Both the position numbers and the translations under genes were made by a program. Shown piece after piece: positions 2,154-30,138 of a stretch of 32,000 bases of DNA. Position 1 is the stretch's first letter, and the number at the start of each line of letters is the position of its first letter. Below the pieces are notes generated by a model. It saw nothing but the letters and a program-made list of their open reading frames with translations. It was not told the DNA's origin and did not search any database. Source of the DNA: an uncultured Candidatus Saccharibacteria bacterium (GTDB lineage: Bacteria > Patescibacteriota > UBA1384 > XYA2-FULL-43-10 > 1-14-0-10-43-13); contig CAZIYE010000003.1 in NCBI GenBank assembly GCA_964543385.1, forward strand, positions 1 to 32,000. Direction: 5' to 3'.

Positions 2154-3392
2154 CTAGGTTCCGTTTTCTCCCCAAGCTAAAACGGATTTCTTTTCTGCTG
2201 ATATACTATAGATATTTTGTTTCTCAATTACCGGTCGGCACAAACCACCATATCCACGCTCAGGGAGATCGGCGATAGTGCCGTTTATGTAGTTCCAAAC
2301 AAACATTGTTCCATCTGAATCAGTGCAAAGAATATTATTACCATGGATTTGATCTATTCGCATAGCCCTTCGGTCGATTTCCCTCACAAGCTTCATATCC
2401 TTACTATTCCAAAGCGATATCTTGCCCCAATTAGTAGAGATTAAGTATTTCTTGTCGGCTGACAGTAAAGACTGAGTAATAAAACTTTTTTCGCCACTAG
2501 GCTCAAAATACTCACCTCTTCGATTGCTTTTGCCGAGAACTTCTAAACTTTTTCCGTGACCAAAAACAAATCGTCCATCTGGCAATTCCGAGACAGAGTG
2601 GTTATCCAAACTAGTATTCGATCGATGTTGATCAACCAATTCGCCAGTCGAAAGTTTGAAGACATAGACATGAACACTTGCCTCGACAACTAATCGATCA
2701 GAATTCTCAAAAACATTGAACCATTTCACTTTGTCGAAACCATCAGGCAATGCGATTTCAACGGTTTGTGGCCCATAGAGGTCGATTATTTTTAGTGTTT
2801 TTTCATCTCGACCAAAAAATATGATTTTCTCATTGTTGGCTATCACCTCGAAATGGACAATCTCGCCATTGGAAGTGTGAGCCAACTCCACAGGCCGCTC
2901 AGTCCCATTGCTATGAATAAATAGAGAGCCGCCGATAGAGAAGATAGTACCTGGTCCGTCAACTAAAGTCTTAACTCTTCGCTCCTCATCTGGCCTCTTA
3001 TCTCCATAATCATAATGAAATAAAACCCTTTTAGTTTCCTTGTCTATAACTGCAAATGTCGTGACACCCTTCCGTGTATTCCGATCGTCACTCATTTTTT
3101 CATACAATACAAAGATTTTGCCCTCTTTCTTATCGCTATCAATACCGGCGCTAACAAGGCGAAAATCATCTTCAATATCTAAGGGTATCTCATCAACAAC
3201 CGTAAATTTCGAATACTCTGGAACCATTAAGTCTTTTATATTTTCAAAGATCAAATCCATTTCATACTTAAAACTCAAAAGATTGGTTATTTCTTTAACC
3301 TTAAAGGCATTATCAAAATCACTCTTTAGATCCCTTAGAGTCGAAATAGAATTGGTAATCTGTTGGCAACTAGGATAAGCCATTGTGTCCAA
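2154..3392 (-). CDS. Family paralog: N-terminal Cys-module + WD40-like beta-propeller domain (412 aa)
   Basis: The N-terminus MDTMAYPSCQQITNSISTLRDLKSDFDNAF carries the C-Q-x-I-T-N family motif. The remainder is strand-rich with repeat ends ISLWNSKD, MFVWNYING and VLAWGENG. It is the last gene of the co-directional cluster, with a TAG stop at 2154. Confidence 0.7.
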   Translation of the reverse strand: MDTMAYPSCQQITNSISTLRDLKSDFDNAFKVKEITNLLSFKYEMDLIFENIKDLMVPEYSKFTVVDEIPLDIEDDFRLVSAGIDSDKKEGKIFVLYEKMSDDRNTRKGVTTFAVIDKETKRVLFHYDYGDKRPDEERRVKTLVDGPGTIFSIGGSLFIHSNGTERPVELAHTSNGEIVHFEVIANNEKIIFFGRDEKTLKIIDLYGPQTVEIALPDGFDKVKWFNVFENSDRLVVEASVHVYVFKLSTGELVDQHRSNTSLDNHSVSELPDGRFVFGHGKSLEVLGKSNRRGEYFEPSGEKSFITQSLLSADKKYLISTNWGKISLWNSKDMKLVREIDRRAMRIDQIHGNNILCTDSDGTMFVWNYINGTIADLPERGYGGLCRPVIEKQNIYSISAEKKSVLAWGENGT

Positions 3393-3398
3393 TTAATA

Positions 3399-4484
3399 TT
3401 ATGCAATTCTCACTGCAGTCCTCGGAACGTGCTCATTATTTCGACCACCATTGTCATATCTGTAACATTCAATACTTTTCGCATTCTCATTCCAGTGCCC
3501 AGCGGCGATGTAATTTCCTTTTGGGTAATAAGTCCCGAGTAGAAGGCTGCCACTATTGCCAGCTTTATATTTCTCAGTTATTTGCTTGTTTTTCTCTAAA
3601 CTGTACAAGTAAAAGATCAACCATGATTCATAGGTAAATCCAATTTCATTTTGATAGGTGGCAGATTTCGAAAGTTCCTCCATCCATTCACTAAAGCTCG
3701 GAATACTTTGGCCATTCCAAATCTTACCAAATTCTTTCCCAAAAGCTTTGCCCGTCGGATCTAATTGAGTTCTTCCACCAATTGTTTCGCAATCATCGGT
3801 TTGTGGCAATTCCCATAACGGCTCGACCATCAAAATCTGCCAACCTGGAAATGCCGATTCAGATTCGACCTCACTTTTGGTTTTTCCCCCATGATTAGCC
3901 ACGTCAAAAGAGGTTGGATAATAAACCGCGCTAACTTCGAGAGATTGATGGAATTGTTCACCTGTCCATGATAGGAATACCTCTTCGGTGTTAACATCGT
4001 CAGCTATTAATCCTTGTGCTTTCAAATCGGCAACATATGACCCGACTCTAGAAGCCATATCTTCAAGATTCAAACCAAAAGGGACGAGAAGAGGCTGAGT
4101 AAATCCTTGCTTGAATTTTTCTGCAAGTTTTTCTCTTTTTTCCAGAATCACTGCATTCATTTGCTCAACACTTGGTATTGGGCAAATCTGTCCTCCCTCT
4201 CCTAAAATACCCCTCACACCATTATAGTCTCCGATCATACCTCGATCAGTCATTAAACTTATCTGATCGTTGATTATTCCCTTAAATTCATCCTTTGGTA
4301 AATTTTCAAATGGCCAAAAATATTCAAGAACCTCTCCGATCTCAATTTTTATTTTGTCATGAAGACTAAGCGCTTCTTGGATATTAATCGGTTGTTGATC
4401 AATTATAAAATCAAAATCTACTTTCGATTTAGAAAGTTTTTTAATTAAATTAGTCAAATGTTGGCAAAAAATATTATCGGCCAT
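3399..4484 (-). CDS. Family paralog: N-terminal Cys-module + orphan globular domain type 1 (361 aa)
   Basis: The N-terminus MADNIFCQHLTNLIKKLSKSKVDFDF is the family module. The C-terminal ~270 aa aligns by eye with the C-terminal third of ORF 14409..16631: GFTQPLLVPFGLNLEDM vs GFKKLLLIPFGVSINSL, FPGWQILMVEPL vs FAWQVVLSEDI, and GFTYESWLIFYLYSL vs GQIPETWLIYAMTCL. It starts 2 nt after the upstream stop. Confidence 0.7.
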   Translation of the reverse strand: MADNIFCQHLTNLIKKLSKSKVDFDFIIDQQPINIQEALSLHDKIKIEIGEVLEYFWPFENLPKDEFKGIINDQISLMTDRGMIGDYNGVRGILGEGGQICPIPSVEQMNAVILEKREKLAEKFKQGFTQPLLVPFGLNLEDMASRVGSYVADLKAQGLIADDVNTEEVFLSWTGEQFHQSLEVSAVYYPTSFDVANHGGKTKSEVESESAFPGWQILMVEPLWELPQTDDCETIGGRTQLDPTGKAFGKEFGKIWNGQSIPSFSEWMEELSKSATYQNEIGFTYESWLIFYLYSLEKNKQITEKYKAGNSGSLLLGTYYPKGNYIAAGHWNENAKSIECYRYDNGGRNNEHVPRTAVRIA

Positions 4485-4486
4485 CG

Positions 4487-4816
4487 CTACGCAGGAGTAG
4501 CCTCTGTTTGCTGTTCGCCGCCATTAAATGGCTCACCAAACATCTCTTCGTAAATGCGCGCACCGTCAAGACATGCTTCATGGTTTCCTTCTTGTCCACA
4601 AATTTCTTGCTGTGCCTCGATAATCATGTGCATATTATCTTTAAACTCGCCATCTCGCCACTCTTTTAGCTCTTTTAGTTGTAGCTCTTCGTGAGTTTTC
4701 TCCATCTCTGCAAGAGCACCATCGATCGCCTCACCGGCCTCTTCACGAAAGTCAAATTCTTCATCCTTTTTAAGTCCGGCCTCGTCAGGACCGGCACCTT
4801 GAAATTCTCCTGGCAT
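4487..4816 (-). CDS. Small acidic hypothetical protein (109 aa) immediately downstream of the AAA+ gene
   Basis: An AAGGAG SD lies 5 nt upstream of the ATG at 4816. The protein is Glu/Asp-rich and predicted helical (EEAGEAIDGALAEMEKTHEELQLKELKEWRDGEF), with two Cys in EICGQEGNHEAC. It is tightly packed between the ATPase gene (12-nt gap) and a family paralog (2-nt gap). Confidence 0.6.
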   Translation of the reverse strand: MPGEFQGAGPDEAGLKKDEEFDFREEAGEAIDGALAEMEKTHEELQLKELKEWRDGEFKDNMHMIIEAQQEICGQEGNHEACLDGARIYEEMFGEPFNGGEQQTEATPA

Positions 4817-4828
4817 GTTTCTCCTTAA

Positions 4829-7756
4829 TTATTTCCAAATATCATTAACTAGTTTATTTTTATCATCGATCGAACCACCCAAAGCTGCATCAGCTGCCTC
4901 TTTATCAATCATACCATGACCGGAAGCAAAATTGATAAGCATGTCGTAAAATTCATTTACCCCCATCAAGAAACCGGCATCATCCATCGTGTCTCTTTGC
5001 TCTTTTTTGCAGATCGGTAAAGCCCTCATTTGGTCAATGACCTCTTTGCAATCAGTCGAGCTCTCGTAGTTTTCAATGTTGGCAACCTTTCTCGCAACTT
5101 CAGCAATACCTCGCACTAGCCTCATTTTTTCTTCTTTATCAAGGTTGATAGACTTTGCTTCATTTAACTTTTGTCCTATTTTCTCATACTCCTCTTTTTT
5201 CCGAGGTGGAAGATAGCCAAAAACAATCTGCATTGTTTCAAGAGATGAAAAGTACTGTAGGGAATATTCACCATTCGTATCTAGTAAAGTAGTAAATTCT
5301 CCATTTTTTCTAACTTTCTTGTACTTTGGAACTGTATCTATCGGGTTAAAACTCATTCGCTCCTTGAATTGACCGATCGCATTGTCCCCCTGAATATCTG
5401 AATATTCTGACCAGCCCTCTCCTCGAAAGAACTGGGCCTGTTTTAACACAGCATACAGAATTGCTTGCTCCTCAGGATGACTATCATACTTTTTCACAAA
5501 ATTCCAAAGATAGTATTCAATATCCATATTGCACCCGCCATCTAGATAACCGCCGACAATATTATCCATCAATTCTCTCATCGAGAGATTAGCCTTTTTC
5601 AGCGTCTGTTTTAGCGTTGCTGCTTCGTTCGATCCAACAATTCCAGCTAAATTTAAATCTGGAAATGTAGCGGGATCAATATTACCTTCAAATAGATCCA
5701 TAATCATTCTAGCGCCAACACCAAGACGATAGAGATCTTTAAAAACAGAATATCGATCATCGGTTTTGACAAGCAGCTCGGCGCCAAGTCTTCGATTCAA
5801 AAGCTTAGTTGCGAGCACTTGGAATATTTGATCATTGATTGCATCTTTGCGATAAGTTTTAACAAACTCTTCAACATCGGTACCTTCAAAGGTCACTTCA
5901 TCGATCTTTTGCAAATCAAGTCTCGCGACATCTGATTCAATTGAATTATATGCATTCGAATTTGGTAAATATCGCACTTCGATTGGATTAATTCGACTAT
6001 AAGTGGCTGGGTCAACATCATTGAAACGAGAACTTTTATATCTATCACCAGTATTACCAGTCCAGATCACACAATAGCCAGGTTTAACTGTGATATCGCC
6101 CTTTTCCGTTCTTGTCGCAATATTGCTACCAAATTTTCTTGTGAGTAAATCATTGAATGCAATCAAGACATCAGGAGAAATAGCATTGGCTTCATCCATT
6201 ATTAACGGCCGGCCCTCTGACATTGCCTGATACATTGCACCCATAATGTATCGACCCTGGACTTGATTAGAATAAAACGTTGAAACTTGATCATCCACTC
6301 TTTTCTGTATTTCTGGGTCAAGCTCGTCTATGTCTCTGCCGTTTTTCCGGTACTCATCCAAGAGATTAGCTCTTATTTGTTCGGTAAGTTCTCCCTGAGA
6401 AGCAACTAGCTCTGTTGCAAGATCTGCGAATCTAGTATCTTCTCCAACTTCTTTATCAACACCCATATCTTTATAAATTTTTGTTAAAAACTCATTTACT
6501 GGGAGCTTTTGTATTCGGAATTCCTCAGTAAAACGATCCGGATCTAGAAACTTGCTACCAGAAACAATGATTGGCTCTTTGCCAAAACGAGTTTTTGCAA
6601 TATGAGTTGCAAGGGCAGTCTTACCAGTGCCAAAGTCACCGTGAAGATATACAATTGTTGGCGGATTCTTTTCAAGTGAAGGCAATGCGCGCTCAATAAT
6701 CTCCCGAACATATTCAGTCTCGACGATCTTTCCTTTATTTAGCAGATTGAAGAGTGATGACAATTCTTGGCGGTAGTTAACATACGAAGTGACAAAGTCC
6801 TTATCAACAGCGTCAATGTGGGCATCGTAAATCCTTTCTACTCCCAATTCGACTTTTTCGCCGAATTCTTCTTCATATGCCTCAGATAGCCAATCGCTGA
6901 CTTCGTCAATCTCCGTGGTTTCAACACCATAAATATTGGCTATCTCGTCAGGTTTTCTAACAACCTCTGGGCTCTTAGAAACATTGGCCGACAGAATACC
7001 TTTTTCCAATTTATGAATTTCTGTCAATGCTCGACGAACATCATCTTTGCTGGCAAGTCCATAAGCCTGTATTTGCGTTAACTGTTCTTCGGAAAAGGAG
7101 GATAATTTATTTAATAAAAGTTGAAAATGAGATTTCAAAAGAAATGCAATTTTCGCTGATCGACCAAGTGTTTGAGCTTTGATTGTGTCTTGAACTTTTG
7201 TGTTATCTGCTTGGTCAGAATCATTGCCAACCATTTTTTGCTCATGACGGCGTATGCCCTTAAACACCAAGTCTTTAACAACAGCTTTTGGATCTTCTTT
7301 CCATAATTGGACTAGATCTTCAAGTGTTATCTGAAGTTTGTCTCGATCTTGAAGCGTTTCAATTTTAGCCCTGATGAAATGAGAGTCAAAAACAGCATCC
7401 CCTTCTTCCCGCTGATCTTCTGGCAATGCATTCAGATATTCTTCTTTGAGTCTATCTCTCAGTGAATCGGTTCTGGACTCAGACCATGATCTCTCTTCAC
7501 CATCCTTATTTTGAATCACATCAATTATTCTTTGATACAGATTTTCATCCTTTTGGAAAGATGAACATATTGAAGATTCCGCGAGACTATCATAAGTTAC
7601 ATATTGGCCGATCTCATCAGCTATTACATGCATTTCTTCCGTGCCAACTTTGTACTCATAAGCTAATCGTTCCGCTTCTCGTGGCTCAAGCAGTTTTTCT
7701 TCAGCTTCAGTTACTTCAGGATGCGTTAATATTGGCGGGCTCATTAGTTCTGACAT
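4829..7756 (-). CDS. Large MoxR/AAA_5-like AAA+ ATPase (975 aa)
   Basis: Walker A LHGDFGTGKT is encoded at 6617..6646. Walker B LIMDEAN is at 6185..6205 and is followed by AISPDVLIAFNDLL, resembling the DExN...L..L segment of MoxR/AAA_5 ATPases. A sensor-like VIWTGNTGDRY lies downstream. A single ATPase core is flanked by ~360-aa N-terminal and ~400-aa C-terminal helical extensions I cannot assign. An AAGGA SD precedes the ATG. Confidence 0.8.
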   Translation of the reverse strand: MSELMSPPILTHPEVTEAEEKLLEPREAERLAYEYKVGTEEMHVIADEIGQYVTYDSLAESSICSSFQKDENLYQRIIDVIQNKDGEERSWSESRTDSLRDRLKEEYLNALPEDQREEGDAVFDSHFIRAKIETLQDRDKLQITLEDLVQLWKEDPKAVVKDLVFKGIRRHEQKMVGNDSDQADNTKVQDTIKAQTLGRSAKIAFLLKSHFQLLLNKLSSFSEEQLTQIQAYGLASKDDVRRALTEIHKLEKGILSANVSKSPEVVRKPDEIANIYGVETTEIDEVSDWLSEAYEEEFGEKVELGVERIYDAHIDAVDKDFVTSYVNYRQELSSLFNLLNKGKIVETEYVREIIERALPSLEKNPPTIVYLHGDFGTGKTALATHIAKTRFGKEPIIVSGSKFLDPDRFTEEFRIQKLPVNEFLTKIYKDMGVDKEVGEDTRFADLATELVASQGELTEQIRANLLDEYRKNGRDIDELDPEIQKRVDDQVSTFYSNQVQGRYIMGAMYQAMSEGRPLIMDEANAISPDVLIAFNDLLTRKFGSNIATRTEKGDITVKPGYCVIWTGNTGDRYKSSRFNDVDPATYSRINPIEVRYLPNSNAYNSIESDVARLDLQKIDEVTFEGTDVEEFVKTYRKDAINDQIFQVLATKLLNRRLGAELLVKTDDRYSVFKDLYRLGVGARMIMDLFEGNIDPATFPDLNLAGIVGSNEAATLKQTLKKANLSMRELMDNIVGGYLDGGCNMDIEYYLWNFVKKYDSHPEEQAILYAVLKQAQFFRGEGWSEYSDIQGDNAIGQFKERMSFNPIDTVPKYKKVRKNGEFTTLLDTNGEYSLQYFSSLETMQIVFGYLPPRKKEEYEKIGQKLNEAKSINLDKEEKMRLVRGIAEVARKVANIENYESSTDCKEVIDQMRALPICKKEQRDTMDDAGFLMGVNEFYDMLINFASGHGMIDKEAADAALGGSIDDKNKLVNDIWK

Positions 7757-7777
7757 GTTTATCCTTTTTTATATATT

Positions 7778-10700
7778 CTATAGGTTGTTTTCAATTTTTT
7801 CCAATGTTTCCATCATCGGTTTTTCTATCTGGCTCTCGATGATCTGTGTTAGAAAAGCGCTAAACTTCTCAGCGATTTCATCTGGATTGTTGGCTGGAAT
7901 TACGTTTTCTCCGTATCTGCTTCGTAGTCCCTCAACCGCACCTGCACCAATGCCCATAGCACCGGTACCTATTGCATAATTTTCCCGCAAATACTTCATC
8001 GCATCAAAAGTATTTGCAGTTATTCCTGTATTATGATCAATCTCTTGGTGACTAATAGAGGCACCATCAGAAATTTGAAAAATAATTTCAGATAAATAAC
8101 CAGAATTCAGAAGTTCCTTTAATTTCGGGTTTTGATCATGAGCTAAAGCAATCCTAGACCAGGCCAGCGCATCTCTCGTATCACCATCTTTTGCGTTCAT
8201 TCTTTGAAATGCCCTGATTGTACTAACCGTTTCAGTCTCGGCCATTTGTAATAATGTTGGCCTTGCTCCCGATTTCGTTTTGTCGGTTAGAAATGAAAAG
8301 TCAGTAACGCTAAAAGGTTTTATCAAACTGACCCTATCTCCAAAAAGCCAGATTTCAGTATCACAAACAACATCCATCTCATCGATATTTTCCGTTACGG
8401 CGCCACCAACCACTTGCTGGAAATTCTTTCGAAAATTTCGCAATGAAGAGTTGAGCAACATCACAGACATTCGGACAGCATCAAGATTGCCACTCATACT
8501 TCCAGAGTTATCTACCAACAACAAAACTCGAAGCATCTTTGGTTTTAGCTCGGCTTTAATTTTTTCGACAATGAGTGAATGAATCAGTCTGCGATCAATA
8601 TCGGCGCCAAATTCAATTTCTGGCAGGAGTTTTTGTAATCGTTTGATATCCGGTTTCCCTTGTCGGTAATATTTATCAACGATAGTATCAATTTTCCGGG
8701 AGATATTTTTGATGATTTGTAGCCAAGCTTCAGCCATCTTGTTGGCTGGTACTCGAAGTTTTTCTTCAAGTTCGAGAAATTTGTCGACCATCTCCTGGGG
8801 TGGAAGAGGGCGGCTTTCTTGTTCCTGGCTAGCGGGTTGATTGTCTTTTAATTGATCTAACAATCTCTTAAACTTATCGTTTTGCGTTTTTTTCTTTTGA
8901 TATTCAGGACTTCTTTTCTCTGACTCGACTTCCTTTATGGTTTCGTCTCGTTCATCTTGTTCGATCATCTCTCGCAAGGCTTTTTCGTAATCACTCACAA
9001 CTTCATCAATATTCTGTGGTTCTTGTTCTGCTCCAGCACTACCAGGTTGACCGGGTTCACTCGCTGGCTGATTATCTTGTTTTTTAGGCTGACCTTTATC
9101 TTCAGATTCACCATCATCCTGATCGTCACCATCTTTATCTTCAGTTTCCTCATCGCCTGGCTCTTTTTCCTTCTCCTCACCATCTTCTTCGTATTCTGTG
9201 TCTCGATCGTCAGTAAAGTCACTTTTTCGCTGCTTCTCGTTTGACTTTTTCTTAATTACCTTCAATTTATCGTTGATTGGAGAGGTTATAGTTTCTGTGA
9301 TTCCTGCCAGCTTTGAACCATCTGCCATTTTATTTTTTTCGTCGAGATATTCCACCTCAACAGAAGTTATCCCTTCTTCATTTCGTAAAACCTTGGTAAT
9401 TATTCCTTTTTTGCCAAAATTAGGACTTTGTCGATCTTTGTTCTTCACTTTATCGCCAGGCTGCCAGTCTGGTGCTTCCTCAATTTCAGGAGGCTCCCCA
9501 CCTTCGCCACCACCCTTGCCATCACCTTTTTGTGGCTCTGGCGGCAATTCCGACTTAAAGCTATCATCAAGAACGCAGAGAAGGCTATAGAGAGGCTCTA
9601 GGATATTTCTGATGGCTCTGGTTCTAGTTACCAGATTATATTTCAAAGGCTTTGTACCAAAGACTGTTCTAGAACGGTCAACCTGCTTAAAGAGGTTGAA
9701 TATGTCCATATACTTAACATTTGAAATTTTGGAAAAATCGAAAGGTAATCCAAGTTGCTTTAAGGAATCCCTTATTTTTCTTTCAAATAATTGGGTGGCG
9801 AAATTAATATCAATTCTCTGATAATCAGAATAAACTGGACCATTTTTACCAACCTCTGCAACATTGACATATACCTCATCCCTTACATAGTTCTTCTTAC
9901 CGCCTTTAAGATCATAAAATGGGACTTTGATCTGGTCACTCATAAAATCAAGATACAAGGATAGTTTATCTGGATCATCTTTGTATTTTTGGACAAAACG
10001 CTCGAGTAACATCTTGTAAGCCTCAGAAAGTGGCCGAGTATAGATAACCCCAACATCTTCATTCAACTTATGTTTACCTTCGGGATTTTTTGATTCATCA
10101 AAAACTTCATTGGTTGACAAGCCAGTCATCTGGTTTTTCATAAAATAGGTCACAAATTGAGATGATCGATTCATCTTGGGAACAGTTTTATCCCAGTCAA
10201 AACCTTGCCCGTAATCCTCTTTCTCTGCGACTCGGATATTACCCTTTCCTTCATCAACATTGATAAGAGGATTCTGACCAAGTTGCTCCATTTGTGGCAT
10301 ATAGACAAAGTCACCGTTATTTTCACCTACTTCTAGGTAGACAGGGAAAAACTGGTTCGTATAAAGATCAACAACTTCCTGATTGTTCCTTCTTGAGTTT
10401 TCAGTGAGAGTGCGGCCATATATTCCTGTGCCAAACACCAAACTATTTACAATTGCGTCTTCGCAGATATTGTAATATTGCCGATACATCGATGCAGCAG
10501 ACATCCGAACTTTTTCGCCCTGTTCATTTCGAACAAAGTAACCTTTTTTCTTTTCATAATTAAACTGTTCAAGCTCGTTGTATTTGCCTGCTAAATCAAG
10601 CTCGCCCATAGTTTTGAGATGGGCAAATTCATGCATAGCGCCGAACATAATTTGCGCAGATGTCATACCTCTCTCTTCACGCATTTTTTTGAATTCCGTC

Positions 10701-11065
10701 ACGTCTAGAGAGATAATGTCTTTTGTTGGCGCATGATAAAAACCCATACCAGCGATAAGCTTGAACTTGGCATTTTTGCGGTATTGCAAGAAGGAAACAA
10801 GGTCAGTATAACGGCCATCCTGGTTGATCCACTGCAACATCTCATCTCTGTATGGCCATAATTCTTTAGGGACATCATTTTCGTCTTTTTCTTCCCTTTC
10901 CGGTTTTTCTGGTGGTTTGGTCGGGTCTTCTGGATCGGGATCTGGCGGCTCGGGACGATCCGCCATTCTTTGCATACCAAAATCAGCCCGATCTTCTGGC
11001 ATTCCCAAATCGGCCGCTGGATTTATTTTTGGCTCTTCGCCAGTTTTCCCAAAAAATTCGGGCAC
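7778..11065 (-). CDS. vWA-domain protein with N-terminal HExxH metallopeptidase-like region and acidic disordered linker (1095 aa)
   Basis: The start is GTG at 11065 with a GGAGGG SD at 11073..11078 (7-nt spacer). HEFAH (HExxH) is encoded at 10619..10633, with a downstream acidic candidate ligand in NICEDAIVN. The central low-complexity stretch is EEDGEEKEKEPGDEETEDKDGDDQDDGESEDKGQPKK. The C-terminal vWA domain has the MIDAS motif LLLVDNSGSMSG (DxSxS), encoded at 8489..8515. This architecture resembles the metallopeptidase+vWA partners of MoxR ATPases. Confidence 0.8.
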   Translation of the reverse strand: MPEFFGKTGEEPKINPAADLGMPEDRADFGMQRMADRPEPPDPDPEDPTKPPEKPEREEKDENDVPKELWPYRDEMLQWINQDGRYTDLVSFLQYRKNAKFKLIAGMGFYHAPTKDIISLDVTEFKKMREERGMTSAQIMFGAMHEFAHLKTMGELDLAGKYNELEQFNYEKKKGYFVRNEQGEKVRMSAASMYRQYYNICEDAIVNSLVFGTGIYGRTLTENSRRNNQEVVDLYTNQFFPVYLEVGENNGDFVYMPQMEQLGQNPLINVDEGKGNIRVAEKEDYGQGFDWDKTVPKMNRSSQFVTYFMKNQMTGLSTNEVFDESKNPEGKHKLNEDVGVIYTRPLSEAYKMLLERFVQKYKDDPDKLSLYLDFMSDQIKVPFYDLKGGKKNYVRDEVYVNVAEVGKNGPVYSDYQRIDINFATQLFERKIRDSLKQLGLPFDFSKISNVKYMDIFNLFKQVDRSRTVFGTKPLKYNLVTRTRAIRNILEPLYSLLCVLDDSFKSELPPEPQKGDGKGGGEGGEPPEIEEAPDWQPGDKVKNKDRQSPNFGKKGIITKVLRNEEGITSVEVEYLDEKNKMADGSKLAGITETITSPINDKLKVIKKKSNEKQRKSDFTDDRDTEYEEDGEEKEKEPGDEETEDKDGDDQDDGESEDKGQPKKQDNQPASEPGQPGSAGAEQEPQNIDEVVSDYEKALREMIEQDERDETIKEVESEKRSPEYQKKKTQNDKFKRLLDQLKDNQPASQEQESRPLPPQEMVDKFLELEEKLRVPANKMAEAWLQIIKNISRKIDTIVDKYYRQGKPDIKRLQKLLPEIEFGADIDRRLIHSLIVEKIKAELKPKMLRVLLLVDNSGSMSGNLDAVRMSVMLLNSSLRNFRKNFQQVVGGAVTENIDEMDVVCDTEIWLFGDRVSLIKPFSVTDFSFLTDKTKSGARPTLLQMAETETVSTIRAFQRMNAKDGDTRDALAWSRIALAHDQNPKLKELLNSGYLSEIIFQISDGASISHQEIDHNTGITANTFDAMKYLRENYAIGTGAMGIGAGAVEGLRSRYGENVIPANNPDEIAEKFSAFLTQIIESQIEKPMMETLEKIENNL

Positions 11066-11101
11066 AGAATATCCCTCCGGAAATCTGATATTTCAATTTA
11101 A

Positions 11102-11130
11102 ATTATAGCAATTTGTTGATGAAATAACAA
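11102..11130 (-). promoter_or_regulatory. Candidate sigma70-type internal promoter upstream of the vWA gene
   Basis: The minus strand reads TTGTTA (11130..11125), a 17-nt spacer, then TATAAT (11107..11102). It lies in the only sizeable intergenic gap of the cluster (67 nt, 11066..11132), about 30 nt upstream of the SD/GTG of the vWA gene. Confidence 0.4.
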
Positions 11131-11132
11131 AA

Positions 11133-12500
11133 CTATTCTAAGTCAATTAATTTTGTCTTGCCAGGATTCTCAGGATCGGCAACCCGCATTAATATCAGCC
11201 CGCCAGTCTTGTCTTTGGAAATCAAAGACTTGGCTTCTTCAATAGTTAAGTCTTCGATTTCTAGAACAATAGCGCCACCCGTCATCAGATAGCCAATATT
11301 ATCAACTCTCTGTCGCAAAACAATCAAATTTCTCTGCAATCCAGCAGTCGGATTCGTATCTTTTAACTCAGCATCTGCTGTGATGATAAATGAATTCTGA
11401 TCTTTATGTTGAATCAAAGATGAGTAAAATATTTCATTATCGCCGGATAGTTCGACTAACCCGGTACCATCAGGAGTTATGTACTTTGGCACAAGAGAAT
11501 TGTCTTCTAGAGACAAAGGGTGCCTGTCATCGGCAGTTGTCTCAAATTTATCAGCAAGAACTTCACCGCCTTCTATGGCACCAAAGCCTACAGCTTCATC
11601 GAAATAAACAAAACCATTCTTCATACCGCGACAACAATCCTCCCCAGCTTTTTCAACGTACCCACTGCCACCATGCATATAAGTAAACGCCCGGTCTCCT
11701 ATTTTATTTGCCTTTGCTTTGCCGCCATCCATTGAGGAACAAAAATTATCGCCGGCTTCCAAAACTACTAATTCGCCGCCTTTCATCGAAGTACCACAAC
11801 CTTCCCCAGCATGGTCGATAATAATCTTACCCCCTGTCATGGAAATACCAGCAGAATCTCCGGCCTCAACTGCCTTTAGACTACCGTTTTTCATGATCGC
11901 TCCAAAAAAGTTTCCTGCTTTAACAACTTGGAGATCGGCTCTTGGATTATCCAGCCCTATGACAAAATAATCAGATAGCGGTTTTGGAATATCATTTATT
12001 ATTATTTTTTCGCCATCACACCCGAGGTTTAAAAAAATCGTGTTTACGATCTGCGCAAATATTGTTTTCATGTCCCCCTTGACCTCACTTCCAAATGAAT
12101 ATTTGTCAGCTAGCTTAACAATGTCTGCATAAAAGCGACTCCGAAGATACTCTTTCAAAAAGCGTTTATAATATTTGCTGTTTAATTTTATTGCCGGTAA
12201 ATTTTCTCTATTAAATCGGCTTGCAATCCTTGCCATGATTTCAGGAATCAGCATTTCGCCTTCTTCTCTATCATCGTCATCTAGCTTGTCTATATAAGCT
12301 TTCAGATCGCTAATGATTTCGCCTCTTTTGTCTTCAAGATCACGCAAAAATACCTTATCAATGCAGGTTAAGTTTTCTACAAACTCTTTTATCCCGAGTG
12401 CTTCGTCAATGCGAAGAGAATCTTGATTCATGGCGATATCAAAAGATTTCTTTTTGACTGACAGAGTTTCAATAACTTTTGTGATTTCTTGGCAATTCAT
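11133..12500 (-). CDS. Family paralog: N-terminal Cys-module + GXGXG beta-helix domain (455 aa)
   Basis: N-terminus MNCQEITKVIETLSVKKKSFDIA. About 19-aa repeats of the form aGDxxGxxMxGGxIxV are encoded at roughly 11595..11930: AGNFFGAIMKNGSLKAVEAGDSAGISMTGGKIIIDHAGEGCGTSMKGGELVVLEAGDNFCSSMDGGKAKANKIGDRAFTYMHGGSGYVEKAGEDCCRGMKNGFVYF. This matches the GXGXG motif of FwdC and the glutamate synthase C-terminal domain. The conserved tail is GGLILMRVADPENPGKTKLIDLE. The ATGA overlaps the upstream stop. Confidence 0.75.
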   Translation of the reverse strand: MNCQEITKVIETLSVKKKSFDIAMNQDSLRIDEALGIKEFVENLTCIDKVFLRDLEDKRGEIISDLKAYIDKLDDDDREEGEMLIPEIMARIASRFNRENLPAIKLNSKYYKRFLKEYLRSRFYADIVKLADKYSFGSEVKGDMKTIFAQIVNTIFLNLGCDGEKIIINDIPKPLSDYFVIGLDNPRADLQVVKAGNFFGAIMKNGSLKAVEAGDSAGISMTGGKIIIDHAGEGCGTSMKGGELVVLEAGDNFCSSMDGGKAKANKIGDRAFTYMHGGSGYVEKAGEDCCRGMKNGFVYFDEAVGFGAIEGGEVLADKFETTADDRHPLSLEDNSLVPKYITPDGTGLVELSGDNEIFYSSLIQHKDQNSFIITADAELKDTNPTAGLQRNLIVLRQRVDNIGYLMTGGAIVLEIEDLTIEEAKSLISKDKTGGLILMRVADPENPGKTKLIDLE

Positions 12501-13549
12501 TCTTGTACAGCCTTTCCGTTCTTAAAATCCATCTTTCTTCCATGACGATCTATATAATACGACTTGCCTCTGTCAGTAACACCGGCTAATCCTTCGGAAA
12601 AAGAATTGGCAAAGGTGTATCTCTTTCCGGAAATCGGCTTGCCTAACTTATTAATAAAAAAATATCCGCCATCATCCGCAACACGCGCCCGGCCTTCGGA
12701 AAAATTTAAGGCATTAATATATGTTTCGGGAAAAAACTGCTTGCCTTGTTCATTTATAAAAATCTTCCTGCCACCCTTGGCCACGCTGGCTAAACCTTCG
12801 GAAAATTCAGGGGGAATACTACTTAATTCCTCCGGCGGTATATGTCTGCCAGTGATATCAATATAAAACCTCACGCCGCCCTTTTGGACGCGAGCCATAC
12901 CTTTTACAAAGAAGGCCTCGTCGTCGAATGTTTCTTCAATAGCCGACTGCCCGTATGTGTCAATAAAACGCCATTGTGGCCCTTCAAGAGGTTTTCCTTC
13001 CTCGTATACGGTTGCCAGACCTTCTGAAAAAGATTTTGCGTGTTTGAATTTTCCCGGAAAGGCTTGTTGGCCCGAATGGTCAATATAAAAATACTCTCCG
13101 TCATTTTTGACTAACGCTAAGCCATCTGAAAAAGAAGAACCATCTTCGTAGTCTTCCTCGAAAACTCGACGGCCTTCTTTGTTTATAAAAAAGAACTTCC
13201 GTTCGTAATTCACTACTGCCAGACCTTCGGAAAAAGGGCCGATTTCCCAATATTCTGGGGTAATAAGATTTCCATTTCGGTCTACTAGAAGCCATCGGCT
13301 TCCCCTTTGAACTCTCGCAACACCATCGTCAAATGTAGAAATAAAATCAGCTCCAAGCTTTTTACCCAGTTTAAGTCTAAGTTGCAACTCAAAGGGATCG
13401 GTTATAACCTCAATCTCATGAATCTCCGCCACCAATTCTGCTCTTTGCTTCATCCCTGCCGCCACATCATTACGATCTAATGTTTGCTTAAAAATTTCTT
13501 TTTTAGATTGAATGTTTTGTATTTTCTTTGTTATTTCTTGGCATTTCAT
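12497..13549 (-). CDS. Family paralog: N-terminal Cys-module + WG (KWG-type) repeat domain (350 aa)
   Basis: N-terminus MKCQEITKKIQNIQSKKEIF. There are at least six repeats of the form FSEGLAxV...G.(W/F/Y)xFI(D/N)xxG: FSEGLAVVNYERKFFFINKEGRRVF, FSDGLALVKNDGEYFYIDHSGQQAF, FSEGLATVYEEG..WRFIDTYGQ, FSEGLASVAKGGRKIFINEQGKQFF, FSEGRARVADDGGYFFINKLGKPIS and FSEGLAGVTDRGKSYYIDRHGRKM. Confidence 0.8.
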   Translation of the reverse strand: MKCQEITKKIQNIQSKKEIFKQTLDRNDVAAGMKQRAELVAEIHEIEVITDPFELQLRLKLGKKLGADFISTFDDGVARVQRGSRWLLVDRNGNLITPEYWEIGPFSEGLAVVNYERKFFFINKEGRRVFEEDYEDGSSFSDGLALVKNDGEYFYIDHSGQQAFPGKFKHAKSFSEGLATVYEEGKPLEGPQWRFIDTYGQSAIEETFDDEAFFVKGMARVQKGGVRFYIDITGRHIPPEELSSIPPEFSEGLASVAKGGRKIFINEQGKQFFPETYINALNFSEGRARVADDGGYFFINKLGKPISGKRYTFANSFSEGLAGVTDRGKSYYIDRHGRKMDFKNGKAVQE

Positions 13550-13554
13550 TATTA

Positions 13555-14412
13555 TTAAATCCTTTCAACATCTTGGCGAGCAAACATTAAAAAGCGAATC
13601 AATACTTTTTCCTTATACCGAGCGTTGCGTTTATAGATCCATGTTAGCCAAAAAGGTGTATCTGCGTAAGTATCAGAGTGATATCCTATAACCCTTGCAG
13701 GCTCACGATACTTTGAATGTTCACATTGCTCAGCTAGAAGCAACACGCCGCCGCCATTTCTTCCATAATCATCCATAAAACTGTCGTTTTTTAGATAATG
13801 GTAAATCTGATGGAGTAGGTATTCCTTACGGGTATAACCGTCTAAATCTGGATTTTTTGCAGAAACCTCTCTTGCCATATCCGAAAAAGCAACTGGATAG
13901 CAAGGTTGGTTATTGGAGTGGGCATCTTTTGCCAGTTCTTGTGGCTTCGTATAGACAATATAGCTTCTTTGTGGACGCGGAGAACTAGTAATTTTGTCTT
14001 CGTCACCTTCATCGACAGGACTATAATCTTCTCTTATAAAATAATTATTTAATTTCAATTGTTCGTCCGCCGGCACCTTCAAATCAAGGGTGTCTAAGAT
14101 AACAATTGGCTGAGTATAACCTTCTCGCTCTGCGATTTCTTTCGATTCGGGACTCAGATCGAGAAGTTCACCGTTTTTATATAATTCAGAAATATTTACC
14201 TCTACCCCAAGCCAATCGTATAATTTCTGATTTCTATTAATCATTTTAAATTTTTCGGTTACTTCCAGAATATCCTGTCGATTTAATATCTCGGTCAGCT
14301 TACTCTTAATATTAAGAGCCCCCTCAATCTCGTTATCATCGACAAAATCACTAAATTCATCTCGAGAGCTCTTTATCTCGGTGATTATTTGTGTTATTTC
14401 TTGGCAATTCAT
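13555..14412 (-). CDS. Family paralog: N-terminal Cys-module + orphan globular domain type 2 (285 aa)
   Basis: N-terminus MNCQEITQIITEIKSSRDEF. The body aligns by eye with ORF 16628..17617: KLYDWLGVEVNISELYKNGELLDLSPESKEIAEREGYTQPIVI vs PVFDWLDLGINLKNEIFTGNILLPTNEEYAESKKHGFSEILII, and DGYTRKEYLLHQIYHYLK vs DGLTLEQGVMLLINRYKK. I recognised no known motif. Confidence 0.7.
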   Translation of the reverse strand: MNCQEITQIITEIKSSRDEFSDFVDDNEIEGALNIKSKLTEILNRQDILEVTEKFKMINRNQKLYDWLGVEVNISELYKNGELLDLSPESKEIAEREGYTQPIVILDTLDLKVPADEQLKLNNYFIREDYSPVDEGDEDKITSSPRPQRSYIVYTKPQELAKDAHSNNQPCYPVAFSDMAREVSAKNPDLDGYTRKEYLLHQIYHYLKNDSFMDDYGRNGGGVLLLAEQCEHSKYREPARVIGYHSDTYADTPFWLTWIYKRNARYKEKVLIRFLMFARQDVERI

Positions 14413-16631
14413 AGTGGCAAAACCAATCTATTGCAAGATCTTGGTGGGTCGCACCGTCCTGGATCAGCCAAACCAAGGTACATATGTGGAGAATCTGGCG
14501 TCGACCCATCGTCACGTTGAACAAAAGGGATTAAATTAGGAGATGTTTTGAGCTTACAGTTTGTAAAAAGCAGTCTATCGCTCCAGCCGCCTTTGTCAAT
14601 TATGCCTTTCCCCTCTGTCAGACAGGTCATAGCGTAAATAAGCCAAGTTTCAGGTATTTGACCAGATATGCCCGCATACTTATGTGTCCACATTTTCTGA
14701 GCAAATTCCCTATAAGATTGATTCTTTTCTTTATAAATATACGGTCTAGCGATGCTGAAATCTTTAAGATACGTTATATCTTCGCTCAATACCACCTGCC
14801 AAGCAAATCCATCACCAATTAGCTCCAATTTGCTCCCGTTATTTTGTGGCGAGAGAGAATAAATCAAATCACCTGTAGTATCACTATCTATCAGATCATC
14901 TTTTACGCGGACAGGATCGGTTTTATCAATATATATTGGCCGATCGTTAAGCTTGTTCATGAATCTGCCGTTGTCGTCTGAATGCAAAATCAAGTTTTTA
15001 TATTTTTCCACTAGAGAATTAATAGATACTCCAAATGGAATAAGAAGCAATTTTTTAAAACCCCCGTCTATATTCTTCTCAAAAAAATCAAGGCTATCCT
15101 TTTTCATTCTACTCACTATTTCGATGTATTTTGGAACAGAGTATTCCTCACCATCAATGCCAATAATTCCTTCGGAGCCATCTGAGAGCTTTTGAAGAAT
15201 ATTGTTGTCACGAAGTAAATTCAATTGTGAATCATATTGTTCTCTCAGTTTGATTTTTTCCGCAAGTAGCAAGGCAGGTATAATTTCCGTTAATTTAATA
15301 GCCAAATGCTCGATATCTTCCTTCACTTTCAAAGCTGAAGGTATATCCGGTAGCCCATAAGCTGTATCAAAAGAATTTTTCTTGATAGAAAGTGTTTTAA
15401 TATATTGGAGGTAATTTTGTCCACCTAATCGTGCCATTATGACTCCGTCAATTCCCTCATTGAAAAAATTTATAGAATCAAAAGAGTCCGAAAAGGTGTG
15501 TCCATCAACATCTGCCTCCTGCCAGCCTCCTTGAGTCAAAACCCAGATGACGCCTGACTTGGAAACATCAATCTCCTTAAATCCTTTGCTAGAAAGCAAT
15601 CGGGTTTCGTGATTTAATATAAACCATTTATCACCAATCTTTACGGTTGCAAAGTCCTTGTTGTACGCTCCAGTTTGATCGTATGTACCACCGTCGACTG
15701 ATTCAAAATTTTTATCAATAAACTGCAATTTACCGTTTTCCAAAACGGGAGCAATTCCACCGTTAAAATCCAATGCCTTTTGGAAATTTTTCGATACCTT
15801 TTCGCCTTTTTTATTGATATAGAAAGAATCATCTCCTTGTGTCACAGCCAAAAGATCTTCTTGAAAATAAGTTCCCATGAAATGATCGTACTCTTCTTCG
15901 TTGATTCTCTGGCCATTTTCACCGACAAAAAAAGTTTTGCCATCGCTCGTAAAAGCGATGGGGAAGCCATGGAAGTGTATCACCGAAGTAGCATACTCTT
16001 CGCCCAATCTCTGAAAGTTCTTATCGATCAGAAAAAATTGTTTGTTGTTTCTAACACAAGCGAAATCTTTGTTCTGGAAACCATAAGTATCATCATATTC
16101 ACTGCTAATCTTATCACCGGATTGATCGATAAAATATGATTTTCCATCTTTGCGCACACAAGCCAAACAGACTGATGGATCCTCCAAAATTATCCTATCA
16201 TAATCACCTGGCAATTGCTCCGACTGCTTACCGTATTTGTCGATAAAATGATATTTCTTGTCTTCTACCGCAAAGGTCGGCTCACCTGTTTGATCTGAAA
16301 AGCGGATATCTTCAAATTCTTTATCATTTATTATTCTCCCATAAAAATCTAGAAGAATTGATTTGCCATTTGGTAGTCTGAGACTGCCTAAACCAGATTT
16401 CCCAAAGTATGGTAAATCGTGCGGTTTGTTTTTTTTGATCTTTTGGCAAACACCTGCCAAAATCTGAGCTCTTACTCGAAAATCGGCGGCAAAAAAGGGG
16501 TAAAATAAGGGTGATTCCCTTAAGAGAAATTCTCGATAGCCGGCCAAGTCTTTATTCCTGACAATCATAGTTCCTTCTTCTTGGCTAGCCGCTAATTCTT
16601 TGATTTTTTGTGTTATTTCTTGGCAGTTCAT
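14409..16631 (-). CDS. Family paralog, apparent fusion of two units: Cys-module + WG repeats + internal Cys-less module copy + orphan domain type 1 (740 aa)
   Basis: N-terminus MNCQEITQKIKELAASQEEG. WG-type repeats include YHFIDKYGKQ, KSYFIDQSGDKIS, FFLIDKNFQRL, SFYINKKGEKVS, LQFIDKNFESV and KWFILNHETRL. At aa ~403-470 (about 15221..15425) the segment GGQNYLQYIKTLSIKKNSFDTAYGLPDIPSALKVKEDIEHL mirrors the N-module of 11133..12500 (CQEITKVIETLSVKKKSFDIAMNQDSLRIDEALGIKEFVE). The C-terminal third is homologous to ORF 3399..4484. Confidence 0.75.
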   Translation of the reverse strand: MNCQEITQKIKELAASQEEGTMIVRNKDLAGYREFLLRESPLFYPFFAADFRVRAQILAGVCQKIKKNKPHDLPYFGKSGLGSLRLPNGKSILLDFYGRIINDKEFEDIRFSDQTGEPTFAVEDKKYHFIDKYGKQSEQLPGDYDRIILEDPSVCLACVRKDGKSYFIDQSGDKISSEYDDTYGFQNKDFACVRNNKQFFLIDKNFQRLGEEYATSVIHFHGFPIAFTSDGKTFFVGENGQRINEEEYDHFMGTYFQEDLLAVTQGDDSFYINKKGEKVSKNFQKALDFNGGIAPVLENGKLQFIDKNFESVDGGTYDQTGAYNKDFATVKIGDKWFILNHETRLLSSKGFKEIDVSKSGVIWVLTQGGWQEADVDGHTFSDSFDSINFFNEGIDGVIMARLGGQNYLQYIKTLSIKKNSFDTAYGLPDIPSALKVKEDIEHLAIKLTEIIPALLLAEKIKLREQYDSQLNLLRDNNILQKLSDGSEGIIGIDGEEYSVPKYIEIVSRMKKDSLDFFEKNIDGGFKKLLLIPFGVSINSLVEKYKNLILHSDDNGRFMNKLNDRPIYIDKTDPVRVKDDLIDSDTTGDLIYSLSPQNNGSKLELIGDGFAWQVVLSEDITYLKDFSIARPYIYKEKNQSYREFAQKMWTHKYAGISGQIPETWLIYAMTCLTEGKGIIDKGGWSDRLLFTNCKLKTSPNLIPFVQRDDGSTPDSPHMYLGLADPGRCDPPRSCNRLVLPL

Positions 16632-17617
16632 TGTTCTGTCTTTCTAACTGCTTCTTCTACTGATTTCGGATATACCGCAAGCTGTACTCTATCAAATGCA
16701 TTAAAGTCATTACCACCCCAAAACCCTCCTGCGTTTCTTATTCTCAAATCTTGTAATTCATCTGCCATTTCATGACTGTGCCACCAAATATTTAAGAATT
16801 CTGGCGCATAGGGCCTTCCATCTGCTTCAATCCACTTTTCTTTTGTTAGTAGGAGGGGATTGTCGATGGATAGAAACTCTGCCAACTCGCCCCATAGCTG
16901 ACCGTCGGCGTTACGTCTCGCAATTAAATCTGTCGCCTTCTTATATCTATTAATAAGAAGCATGACGCCCTGTTCTAGTGTTAGCCCATCAATAAACAAA
17001 TCGTCTTTTTTCATTTCTTGGCACATTGTATCAATAGCAGGCAAAATCTCACTTGCTTTTTTGTGTTCAAGCTCAGGAAAGGCGTTTTTTCCGTCAAATT
17101 CCTTTTTTACCAAGAGTGTATAAAGTTGCTTGGGACAAGTGGCGTTTCGCCCCTCTTCAGTATTCATCAATGACTCATATTCGCTCGGATTACTTGAACT
17201 GTTATTCCACACACCAGCCATACGGTCATTGTCCGGGTTTAAATCCAATCGGATAGCTTCTGAGGCTTTTTGACACAGAGCGATCCGGTCGATTTGGCCA
17301 GGGATGATTAATATTTCCGAGAAACCATGTTTTTTTGACTCCGCATATTCCTCATTCGTTGGTAACAATATATTTCCAGTAAAAATTTCATTCTTGAGGT
17401 TGATTCCAAGATCAAGCCAATCAAAAACTGGACGAGATTGTTCTGTTGCTTTTTTGATTGCTTCGAGACACTCACCGGAACGGTTCCAAATTTCAAAATC
17501 AATCTCCTTAAGTATTCGCTTGGAATCATCAAAATCATGGCTGTATTGTTTTTGAGCCATCTCAGCATTTAATCTATGAATATTCGTGACTTTCTGTGTT
17601 ATTTCTTGGCAGTTCAT
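16628..17617 (-). CDS. Family paralog: N-terminal Cys-module + orphan globular domain type 2 (329 aa)
   Basis: N-terminus MNCQEITQKVTNIHRLNAEMA. The body is homologous to 13555..14412 (see that entry). There are ATGA overlaps at both ends. Confidence 0.7.
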   Translation of the reverse strand: MNCQEITQKVTNIHRLNAEMAQKQYSHDFDDSKRILKEIDFEIWNRSGECLEAIKKATEQSRPVFDWLDLGINLKNEIFTGNILLPTNEEYAESKKHGFSEILIIPGQIDRIALCQKASEAIRLDLNPDNDRMAGVWNNSSSNPSEYESLMNTEEGRNATCPKQLYTLLVKKEFDGKNAFPELEHKKASEILPAIDTMCQEMKKDDLFIDGLTLEQGVMLLINRYKKATDLIARRNADGQLWGELAEFLSIDNPLLLTKEKWIEADGRPYAPEFLNIWWHSHEMADELQDLRIRNAGGFWGGNDFNAFDRVQLAVYPKSVEEAVRKTEQ

Positions 17618-22380: not shown

Positions 22381-22384
22381 AGAT

Positions 22385-23821: not shown

Positions 23822-23846
23822 ACTGTCCCTCCGTATATTTGTATCT

Positions 23847-25262: not shown

Positions 25263-25278
25263 TCACCCTCCAAAATAT

Positions 25279-27959: not shown

Positions 27960-27964
27960 AATAT

Positions 27965-30126: not shown

Positions 30127-30138
30127 ACTGTTTCATAC

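Follow-up and report, generated by a model that had tools for sequence, protein, structure and literature searches.

A stretch of 32,000 nucleotides from the genome of an uncultured Candidatus Saccharibacteria bacterium (contig CAZIYE010000003.1, positions 1 to 32,000), referred to here as the window, encodes a large AAA_5 ATPase (P0001, 975 aa; 4829..7756, minus strand) and, next to it, a partner protein (P0002, 1095 aa, GTG start; 7778..11065, minus strand) in which a head with an HExxH motif is joined to a von Willebrand factor A (vWA) domain with a metal ion-dependent adhesion site (MIDAS). The pair is genomically coupled to proteins that carry a lineage-specific N-terminal tag and binding scaffolds (WD40, WG repeats, beta-helix). 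The reading favoured here, held tentatively and at somewhat less than even confidence, is that the two proteins make up a midasin-like mechanoenzyme in split form, which works on a diversified set of binder proteins and probably serves in conflict or sensing. It is likewise plausible, if a little short of probable, that the ATPase, the head-vWA protein and a small cysteine-containing protein are the conserved centre of a cytoplasmic machine powered by ATP, so far in Patescibacteria (candidate phyla radiation, CPR). The location is taken as cytoplasmic because no transmembrane segment is predicted.

The design joins MoxR-vWA pairs, zincin peptidases and diversified binder repertoires (from paralog arrays or DGRs, diversity-generating retroelements), subjects that are mostly treated separately, and is found in at least six CPR lineages. 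An exhaustive search of 1.84 billion representatives retrieves 188 homologues of the head-vWA protein at E<=1e-3, so that the HExxH/[DE]DxxVN-vWA family comprises at least 188 representative clusters, and it is missed by present domain libraries. CPR genomes are smaller than 1 Mb. The host genome here measures 0.90 Mb in four contigs (98.7% complete), with a single copy each of the ATPase and head-vWA genes, and the locus takes more than 30 kb, or more than 3% of it. This large genomic share makes it likely that the locus is important for an epibiotic lifestyle or for phage defence.

The ATPase and the head-vWA protein

An earlier note, made from the letters of this DNA alone, had described the two genes as a MoxR-like AAA+ ATPase with a vWA partner. 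The positions it gave for four motifs were exact when recomputed, and both open reading frames (ORFs) are present on the minus strand as it described. By its sequence, the ATPase is assigned to the AAA_5, or MoxR sensu lato, clade (MoxR/CobS/midasin-type) and not to MoxR proper, because AAA_3 (PF07726, MoxR proper) gives no match on it at Pfam E<=1. Pfam AAA_5 (PF07728) matches it with 32 bits against a cut-off of 22, and the same match is precomputed on nearly all of 57 homologues. Its top NCBIfam match is GvpN (1.5e-8, 34.5 bits, far under the model cut-off), and in PHROGs it matches the CobS-like phrog_249 (7e-13). A profile of the AAA core (alignment A3) run against the PDB returns midasin as the only significant match (8e-15 to 5e-12), centred on the segment G-A-l-x-x-A-m-x-x-G-x-hhh-DE-x-N-x-x-x-x-x-V-L-x-x-L-N-x-L-L. 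These matches agree with the MoxR-like AAA+ assignment of the earlier note.

The catalytic motifs of the ATPase are intact. Walker A (LHGDFGTGKT) lies at 6617..6646 and Walker B (LIMDEAN) at 6185..6205, the latter followed by AISPDVLIAFNDLL at 6143..6184; sensor-1 (WTGNTGDRY) is placed at 6038..6064, minus strand, by the AlphaFold model and the alignment, and the arginine finger R588 at 5993..5995, minus strand, by the alignment. In 38 ATPase homologues no variation is seen at residues G373, G376, G378, K379, T380, D521/E522, N568 and R588. In the AlphaFold model (predicted local distance difference test, pLDDT, 82.7), secondary structure and conserved residues delimit an AAA+ core at residues ~341-600 (5957..6736, minus strand), with strands beta1 at 368-373, beta2 at 396-399, beta3 at 518-521, beta4 at 563-568 and beta5 at 589-593. 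Walker A follows beta1, Walker B sits on beta3, and a pre-sensor-1 hairpin (545-556) precedes the sensor-1 strand. At the helix-2 position, where the clade usually has a short hairpin, the model shows a helical insert of ~100 aa (residues 400-498; 6263..6559, minus strand). Foldseek matches of the model comprise McrB, HslU, ORC, NtrX, NorQ, Mdn1 and dynein, with NorQ giving the top target-normalised TM-score (0.58); HslU is probably in the list because it too has an insertion domain.

The core is flanked by extensions of ~340 aa on the N-terminal side and ~375 aa on the C-terminal side, which are confidently folded in the model and mostly helical, and which matched nothing. The earlier note had placed a single core within ~750 aa of helical extensions. 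The single core and the helical character hold, and the size is better divided into the two extensions of ~340 and ~375 aa, with the ~100-aa insert lying inside the core.

The AlphaFold model of the head-vWA protein has a mean pLDDT of 75 and falls into six parts. A disordered N-terminus (residues 1-57) is followed by the HExxH head (residues ~60-500; 9566..10888, minus strand; pLDDT mostly 83-95) and by a small five-stranded beta-barrel of SH3/KOW-like appearance (residues ~535-606; 9248..9463, minus strand). The barrel strands are modelled at 539-542, 553-562, 565-574, 586-593 and 600-605, and weak KOW and SH3_13 matches occur in single homologues only. Next comes a D/E-rich linker (residues 607-690; 8996..9247, minus strand), assigned by composition and by the model, with 32 D/E against 11 K/R among its 84 residues and a pLDDT below 50 at residues 607-618 and 627-690; the long acidic linker between head and vWA that the earlier note had reported is therefore present and is disordered in the model. 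A helical stalk (residues ~691-843; 8537..8995, minus strand; AlphaFold), with helices at 692-717, 720-741, 757-800 and 825-839, leads into the vWA domain (residues 844-1095; 7781..8536, minus strand), which closes the protein at residue 1095 with nothing C-terminal to it. Stalk and vWA are conserved jointly in distant relatives.

The C-terminal domain is a true vWA domain with a full MIDAS site, as the earlier note had proposed and as profile, Foldseek and alignment concur. VDNSGSMSG (8489..8515) holds D852-x-S854-x-S856, and the remaining MIDAS residues are T963 (8177..8179) and D1000 (8066..8068). Across 23 full-length homologues, D852, S854, S856 and D1000 do not vary and T963 hardly does. 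Since the full-length profile gave only low-complexity matches to acidic tails when run against the PDB, the searches were repeated per domain. The vWA profile (alignment A6) then matches the vWA domains of TRAP, C2 and integrins (1.5e-5). In Foldseek against the PDB, the first four places for this domain go to MIDAS domains, from human MDN1 and from Chaetomium Rea1, in complex with ubiquitin-like (UBL) ligands (best E 2e-7, probability 1.0), and CMG2, C2a and NorD rank next. The sequence-level tie to the midasin MIDAS is weak (E 0.75). Pfam VWA stays under threshold on P0002 and is above it on the distant homologue P0135 (28.8 vs 23.8 bits).

Two side observations concern the layout of this protein. 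Among viral structures (BFVD), the whole head-vWA model aligns end to end with VWFA/CobT-like proteins of ~700-800 aa from a halovirus and uncultured phages (R4THQ9, A0A6J5N5I1), and on these models phage CobS/CobT-like pairs may share the same broad architecture as the head-vWA/ATPase pair; P0002 itself has no PHROG match. In a saccharibacterial relative (L011:1722-4866), head and vWA are encoded by separate ORFs of 543 and 497 aa that lie 19 nt apart; either the gene is truly split there or the assembly contains a frameshift.

The head carries two conserved motifs, HEFAH (10619..10633) and YNICEDAIVN (10445..10474). H145, E146, H149, D203 and N207 are invariant in the 23 full-length homologues (alignment A4). 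A head alignment of 20 sequences (A7; mean column identity 25%, members 17-45% identical to the window protein) shows H145, E146, H149, N199, D203, V206, N207, Y235 and F240 as invariant, and residue 202 is acidic in every aligned sequence. Among 105 representative homologues of at least 600 aa, HExxH occurs within the N-terminal 350 residues in 101, a [DE]DxxVN motif follows some 40-90 residues later in most, and the DxSxS motif is found in nearly all. The model places HExxH on a helix (136-154) after a three-stranded sheet, and N199, E202, D203 and N207 on a later helix (191-211). A zincin whose third ligand sits on the following helix would show this order of elements, and D203-x-x-x-N207 may stand in place of the usual E-x-x-x-D.

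The case for a zincin fold of the head is weak. It draws on the element order of the AlphaFold model and on PDB profile matches that are all sub-threshold (proabylysin 0.098, projannalysin 0.15, then fragilysin, ADAMTS and MMP14). Fold searches with the whole model are filled with vWA matches, and DUF4344 is matched by one of the 20 head sequences (0.004). The earlier note had called the head peptidase-like and had expected HHpred or Pfam to show a putative metallopeptidase domain. The invariant HExxH and the second acidic motif agree with the former, and the latter did not materialise, in that no Pfam or NCBIfam peptidase model, and no vWA model of either library, matched the 1095-aa protein. 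Kinship with M48/HtpX was considered and rejected: against an HtpX/M48 alignment built from relatives, hhalign aligned only the 19-column HExxH helix, with 8% probability. Membership in DUF2201_N (PF13203) was rejected as well, with no match in the host genome or in 60 Patescibacteria genomes in a search whose control genomes did give matches. The head may provide a peptidase output, process the tag enzymatically or offer a docking site that depends on zinc.

Tagged paralogs and the conserved neighbourhood

The core genes at the locus are closely packed and share one orientation, and the pair lies inside an array of paralogous genes, as the earlier note had stated. Upstream are 16 intact paralogs and one split member (11133..31449, minus strand), delimited by alignment of their N-terminal module and by Pfam, and two more lie downstream (2154..4484, minus strand; N-terminal module alignment). 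The window paralogs share an N-terminal module of the form 'MNCQEITK...', whose pattern is a short variable leader, an invariant cysteine and an amphipathic helix ('..C[KQE]E[IL]..L..L...F[DE]'); this module is referred to below as the handle. The leader before the cysteine measures 2-13 residues and conservation starts at the cysteine. A hidden Markov model (HMM) of the handle run over the whole genome places all 20 significant matches (E<=2e-8) on this contig. According to Pfam, the C-terminal parts of the window paralogs are WG repeats, GXGXG beta-helices, propeller-like domains and unassigned domains, and in a Buchananbacteria locus (L007) the tagged paralogs are WD40 propellers. The array members are presumed to be clients or adaptors of the machine. 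A homotypic adaptor of the effector-associated domain (EAD) type was considered and rejected for the tag, as tag HMMs find no copy of it in the ATPase or the vWA protein of the window or of three short-type loci. The split member consists of an 88-aa ORF (22114..22380, minus strand), in which an MNCQEVTK handle is followed by the first part of a WG repeat, and of a WG-repeat ORF of 325 aa without a handle (21109..22086, minus strand), which lies beyond a stop and a gap of 27 nt; its sequence identifies it as a disrupted or recently frameshifted paralog.

Eleven related loci were examined, ten of a long type, like the window, and one of a short type (L006). Their taxon labels are Gracilibacteria, Saccharibacteria, Peribacteria, Parcubacteria and Buchananbacteria, with one bin labelled Gammaproteobacteria, and the names of homologues include Berkelbacteria, Buchananbacteria and 'Patescibacteria group'. 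The head-vWA gene adjoins the ATPase gene in nine of the eleven, in either order, the loci coming from Berkel-, Buchanan-, Sacchari-, Gracili-, Peri- and Parcubacteria, and the two exceptions are at contig ends, one just upstream of the vWA gene and the other ~1 kb beyond it. With the window counted, genes with the cysteine handle flank the pair in 10 of 11 long-type loci, in 1 to about 20 copies. The earlier note would have been contradicted had orthologous pairs never been linked to such paralogs; tagged paralogs are in fact kept beside the pair in other CPR lineages. The distribution as a whole is sporadic: the head domain occurs in six of 301 sampled Patescibacteria genomes, and those sampled from the host's own family, order or class yielded none.

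Directly after the ATPase gene lies an ORF for a small acidic helical protein of 109 aa (4487..4816, minus strand), with 30 D/E against 9 K/R and a separate AAGGAG ribosome-binding site. In each of the nine long-type loci whose sequence covers this position, the ATPase is directly followed by a small acidic ORF, 58-120 aa in length. The family (window, L001, L007 and L010-L015) has one invariant cysteine, in the motif I-x-x-x-C-[AGPK]-x-E, and by this conservation its members are regarded as a third component of the core. The handle proteins and the small protein thus each keep exactly one invariant cysteine, a parallel in sequence that suggests a Cys-Cys or shared-metal relation between them.

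Short-type relatives have a head-vWA protein of 630-890 aa and an ATPase of 600-1100 aa. In four further short-type loci the pair is adjacent in three, and in the remaining one (L019) both genes are on the same contig with paralogs between them. Tagged paralogs accompany the pair in three of the five short-type loci, each with its own tag: eleven WD40 paralogs share an acidic tag 'EESNEELSTLKESLRQA..' (L016, 773-15073), six share 'DLRDFTxxVA' (L019, 178-11538) and three share 'NPF..LG..FL.A.DA' (L018, 4801-12352). From these sequences, the tag seems to change together with the machine from lineage to lineage.

No paralog array accompanies the ATPase branch that is most distant (28% identity). 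There, the last ~120 nt of the ATPase gene recur 340-510 nt downstream, by genes for bAvd and a reverse transcriptase (RVT_1). Such a repeat next to bAvd and reverse transcriptase genes is seen for three ATPase genes in two loci, namely 13180-13298 / 13519-13637 in L006, from base-by-base alignment, and 2061-2184 / 2568-2691 and 10141-10262 / 10501-10622 in L020. Because the mismatches of the aligned L006 pair fall almost only at A of the downstream copy, the sequences bear the signature of a DGR that would hypermutate the ATPase C-terminus in this branch. No reverse transcriptase was found in the window's genome. L006 also contains an AT-rich direct repeat of 109 nt (9523-9631 and 9907-10015, 72% identity) in the 750-nt gap from the short-type vWA gene to the ATPase.

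The remaining features of the window are few. Its G+C content is 39% and nearly every gene is on the minus strand. A promoter-like site (TTGTTA-17-TATAAT) and a GGAGGG ribosome-binding site were read in the sequence before the head-vWA GTG (11066..11132, minus strand). The sole plus-strand genes are at the edge of the locus and encode a PLD-like protein (PLDc_2) with a hydrophobic C-terminus (409-1098) and an acidic coiled-coil protein (1386-2126).

Proposed mechanism and competing explanations

By analogy with Rea1/midasin and its clients Ytm1 and Rsa4, and with NorQ-NorD and CbbQ-CbbO, the ATPase would form a ring. The vWA domain would dock on the ring, where the metal ion of its MIDAS would grip an acidic residue of the N-terminal handle of a binder, and ATP hydrolysis would then pull on or remodel the binder or its cargo. 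Rea1/midasin pulls Ytm1 and Rsa4 via N-terminal handles (PMC6624252, PMC8837202). The zincin-like head would provide a catalytic or zinc-dependent output, and the handle or a captured partner could possibly be cut. Diversity of the binding modules would have two sources, namely up to ~20 paralogs here and the DGR on the ATPase tail in the sister branch. The most likely role would be the recognition of variable targets, as in the MoxR-vWA 'ternary' conflict systems. A conflict or sensor role is proposed because the binders are diversified and the distribution is sporadic, and both features are taken as hallmarks of conflict and sensor MoxR-vWA systems (Kaur et al., PMC7159879; Doré et al., PMC10907252).

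Several observations weigh against the reading of a split mechanoenzyme on diversified binders. PADLOC has no matching model and yields only trivial P-loop hits, and effectors of the classical kind, for instance a nuclease or a TIR domain, are missing. The handles are helical and are not UBL domains, and an acidic residue beside the cysteine is not invariant in them, with C-x-E or C-E in 13 of 17 window copies. One long-type locus, from Peribacteria (L012), has no handle gene nearby. The midasin match of the ATPase profile is a sum of four to five weak per-module matches of 9-17 bits each, and by Foldseek E-value McrB and HslU rank above NorQ. The two invariant cysteines, in the handle and in the small protein, are not explained by this reading.

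A more specific form can be given to the same idea, and it is rated as possible though on the unlikely side. The pair would be a split bacterial analogue or relative of midasin, in which a ring-shaped AAA_5 homo-oligomer works with a tethered MIDAS hand that grips interchangeable handles on a set of beta-propeller, WG-repeat and beta-helix binders, in an intracellular immune or host-sensing system with diversified receptors and a zincin output. Pulling on a ligand-occupied binder would unmask the zincin head or feed it, and the handle cysteine would be withdrawn from the catalytic zinc in the manner of a cysteine switch. In the sister branch, the variable binder would be the DGR-hypermutated, lectin-type tail on the motor itself.

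The competitor that survives best is a maturation or metal-insertion chaperone, considered rather unlikely. The pair would load metal into the handle proteins or assemble them, and with similarly low probability the invariant cysteines of the handle and the small protein would be metal ligands or disulfide partners. NorQ-NorD (Fe), CoxD-CoxE (Cu/Mo) and CobS-CobT (Co) are metal-loading pairs of this kind. The conservation of one cysteine in each protein fits such a role, as do the CobS-like PHROG match of the ATPase, its GvpN match far under the cut-off, and the CobT and phage CobT-like proteins that turn up when the vWA domain and the whole length are compared. MoxR-vWA pairs are, as is well established, usually maturation factors (PMC7159879). 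However, the tags of the short-type loci have no cysteine, and occurrence in only 2% of sampled genomes together with coupling to a DGR would be unexpected for housekeeping maturation. A chelatase role was rejected separately, as neither PF02514 (CobN) nor PF06213 (CobT N-domain) has a match in the 98.7% complete genome.

Degradation in trans, after the manner of FtsH, is a still less probable explanation. The tags would be degrons, the vWA protein an adaptor that delivers the tagged proteins, the ring an unfoldase and the HExxH head the protease. The earlier note had suggested tag processing of this sort, or else capture of the tag through the MIDAS, and both stay conjectural. The invariant glutamate of HExxH and the downstream acidic ligand candidate suggest from sequence that catalysis is retained; the PDB matches named for the head are zinc peptidases only, all of them sub-threshold; and the leader before the handle cysteine varies from 2 to 13 residues while conservation runs from the cysteine on. 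These points are set against a head that matches no peptidase family model and that hangs on a disordered tether of ~85 residues instead of being stacked on the ring, and against AAA_5/MoxR-type ATPases being, as a matter of general knowledge, not known to thread substrates into proteases. It is also hard to rationalise why ~20 genes would be kept merely for degradation of their products.

The pair could also be a CobS/CobT-like module of a phage or mobile element that is independent of the paralogs and owes its position to hitch-hiking in a variable island. The end-to-end fit of the head-vWA model to vWA, CobT-like proteins of a halovirus and of phages, the phrog_249 match of the ATPase and the patchy distribution are compatible with this. 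It is nevertheless judged very improbable, because synteny and profile results argue otherwise: the linkage to paralogs persists in 10 of 11 long-type and three of five short-type loci at 30-45% identity and with shuffled order, the genes are tightly packed and co-oriented with a promoter-like site before the vWA gene, and P0002 has no PHROG match. The same lines of evidence disfavour a McrB-like GTPase of a restriction-type system, which can be put aside as highly improbable: McrB is the top Foldseek match of the ATPase by E-value (1.8e-5) and the sensor-1 NTGDR resembles the MNxxDR motif of McrB, but the TM-score to McrB is 0.34 vs 0.58 for NorQ, the conserved partner is a vWA protein and not the McrC nuclease (no McrC-like Pfam match among the neighbours), and sequence profiles select midasin, CobS and GvpN.

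Comparison with known systems

Some parts of the system have been known, namely an AAA_5 ATPase with a vWA partner and, as a concept, the zincin-vWA fusion. The [DE]DxxVN head family, the small cysteine protein, lineage-specific tags on binder arrays and a DGR-targeted ATPase tail were not found in the domain libraries or the literature searched, and that literature holds no description of such a system in Patescibacteria. The nearest concept for the partner protein is DUF2201_N (PF13203) with DUF2201 (PF09967), in which HExxH likewise stands N-terminal to a vWA-like domain and the partner is of MoxR type. The head-vWA protein differs in its size, its acidic linker and its [DE]DxxVN motif, and PF13203 does not match it.

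In NorQ-NorD, CbbQ-CbbO and CobS-CobT, as here, an AAA_5 ATPase and a vWA/MIDAS partner are encoded by neighbouring genes. For the AAA core the best TM-score is that to NorQ, NorD is among the fold matches of the vWA domain, and CobT and BchD have an acidic linker before the vWA domain as well. However, the cognate clients of these pairs (NOR, Rubisco and CobN) are not present here and the proteins of the window are about three times larger, whereas NorD, CbbO and CobT have no HExxH head as far as the tested models show.

The MoxR-vWA ternary systems (VMAP, iSTAND, FtsH and beta-propeller types; PMC7159879) share a MoxR-clade ATPase, a vWA protein and variable components with the system described here. 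They also share peptidase domains, beta-propellers, a patchy spread and diversification by paralogy or DGRs (PMC10907252). The arrangement of these elements is different. The zincin is N-terminal on the vWA protein here, whereas trypsin or caspase is found on VMAP there, and the vWA domain here is C-terminal and without an effector tail. Propellers are fused C-terminally to the vWA domain in the beta-propeller type of ternary system, whereas here they are encoded by separate, multi-copy, tagged genes. The core proteins contain no copy of the tag, which is therefore not of EAD type, and no STAND family match occurs among the window neighbours in Pfam. The ATPase is three times larger here, and the hosts are unicellular, ultra-small CPR bacteria.

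Midasin (Rea1/MDN1) also has AAA_5 modules and a D/E-rich flexible linker before a MIDAS-type vWA domain, and its clients Ytm1/WDR12 and Rsa4/NLE1, like the presumed clients here, are propellers with a small N-terminal handle. Six AAA modules are fused in midasin, whereas one is present per polypeptide here, presumably in a homo-oligomer, and the MIDAS is in cis there but on a separate protein here. The HExxH head and the small barrel occur here only. The handles of midasin clients are UBL domains, whereas those described here are helical hairpins with an invariant cysteine, and two clients compare with up to ~20. The system here is bacterial and sporadic, with no visible tie to ribosome assembly. 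The parallel breaks down over the number of AAA modules, the distribution over two polypeptides and the handle fold, and is striking in the motor, in the acidic linker with MIDAS and in clients that combine a handle with a propeller. With a motor and a MIDAS that resemble those of midasin, the system may make mechanical extraction through a MIDAS tractable in a prokaryote and possibly shed light on the origin of the Rea1-Ytm1/Rsa4 relationship.

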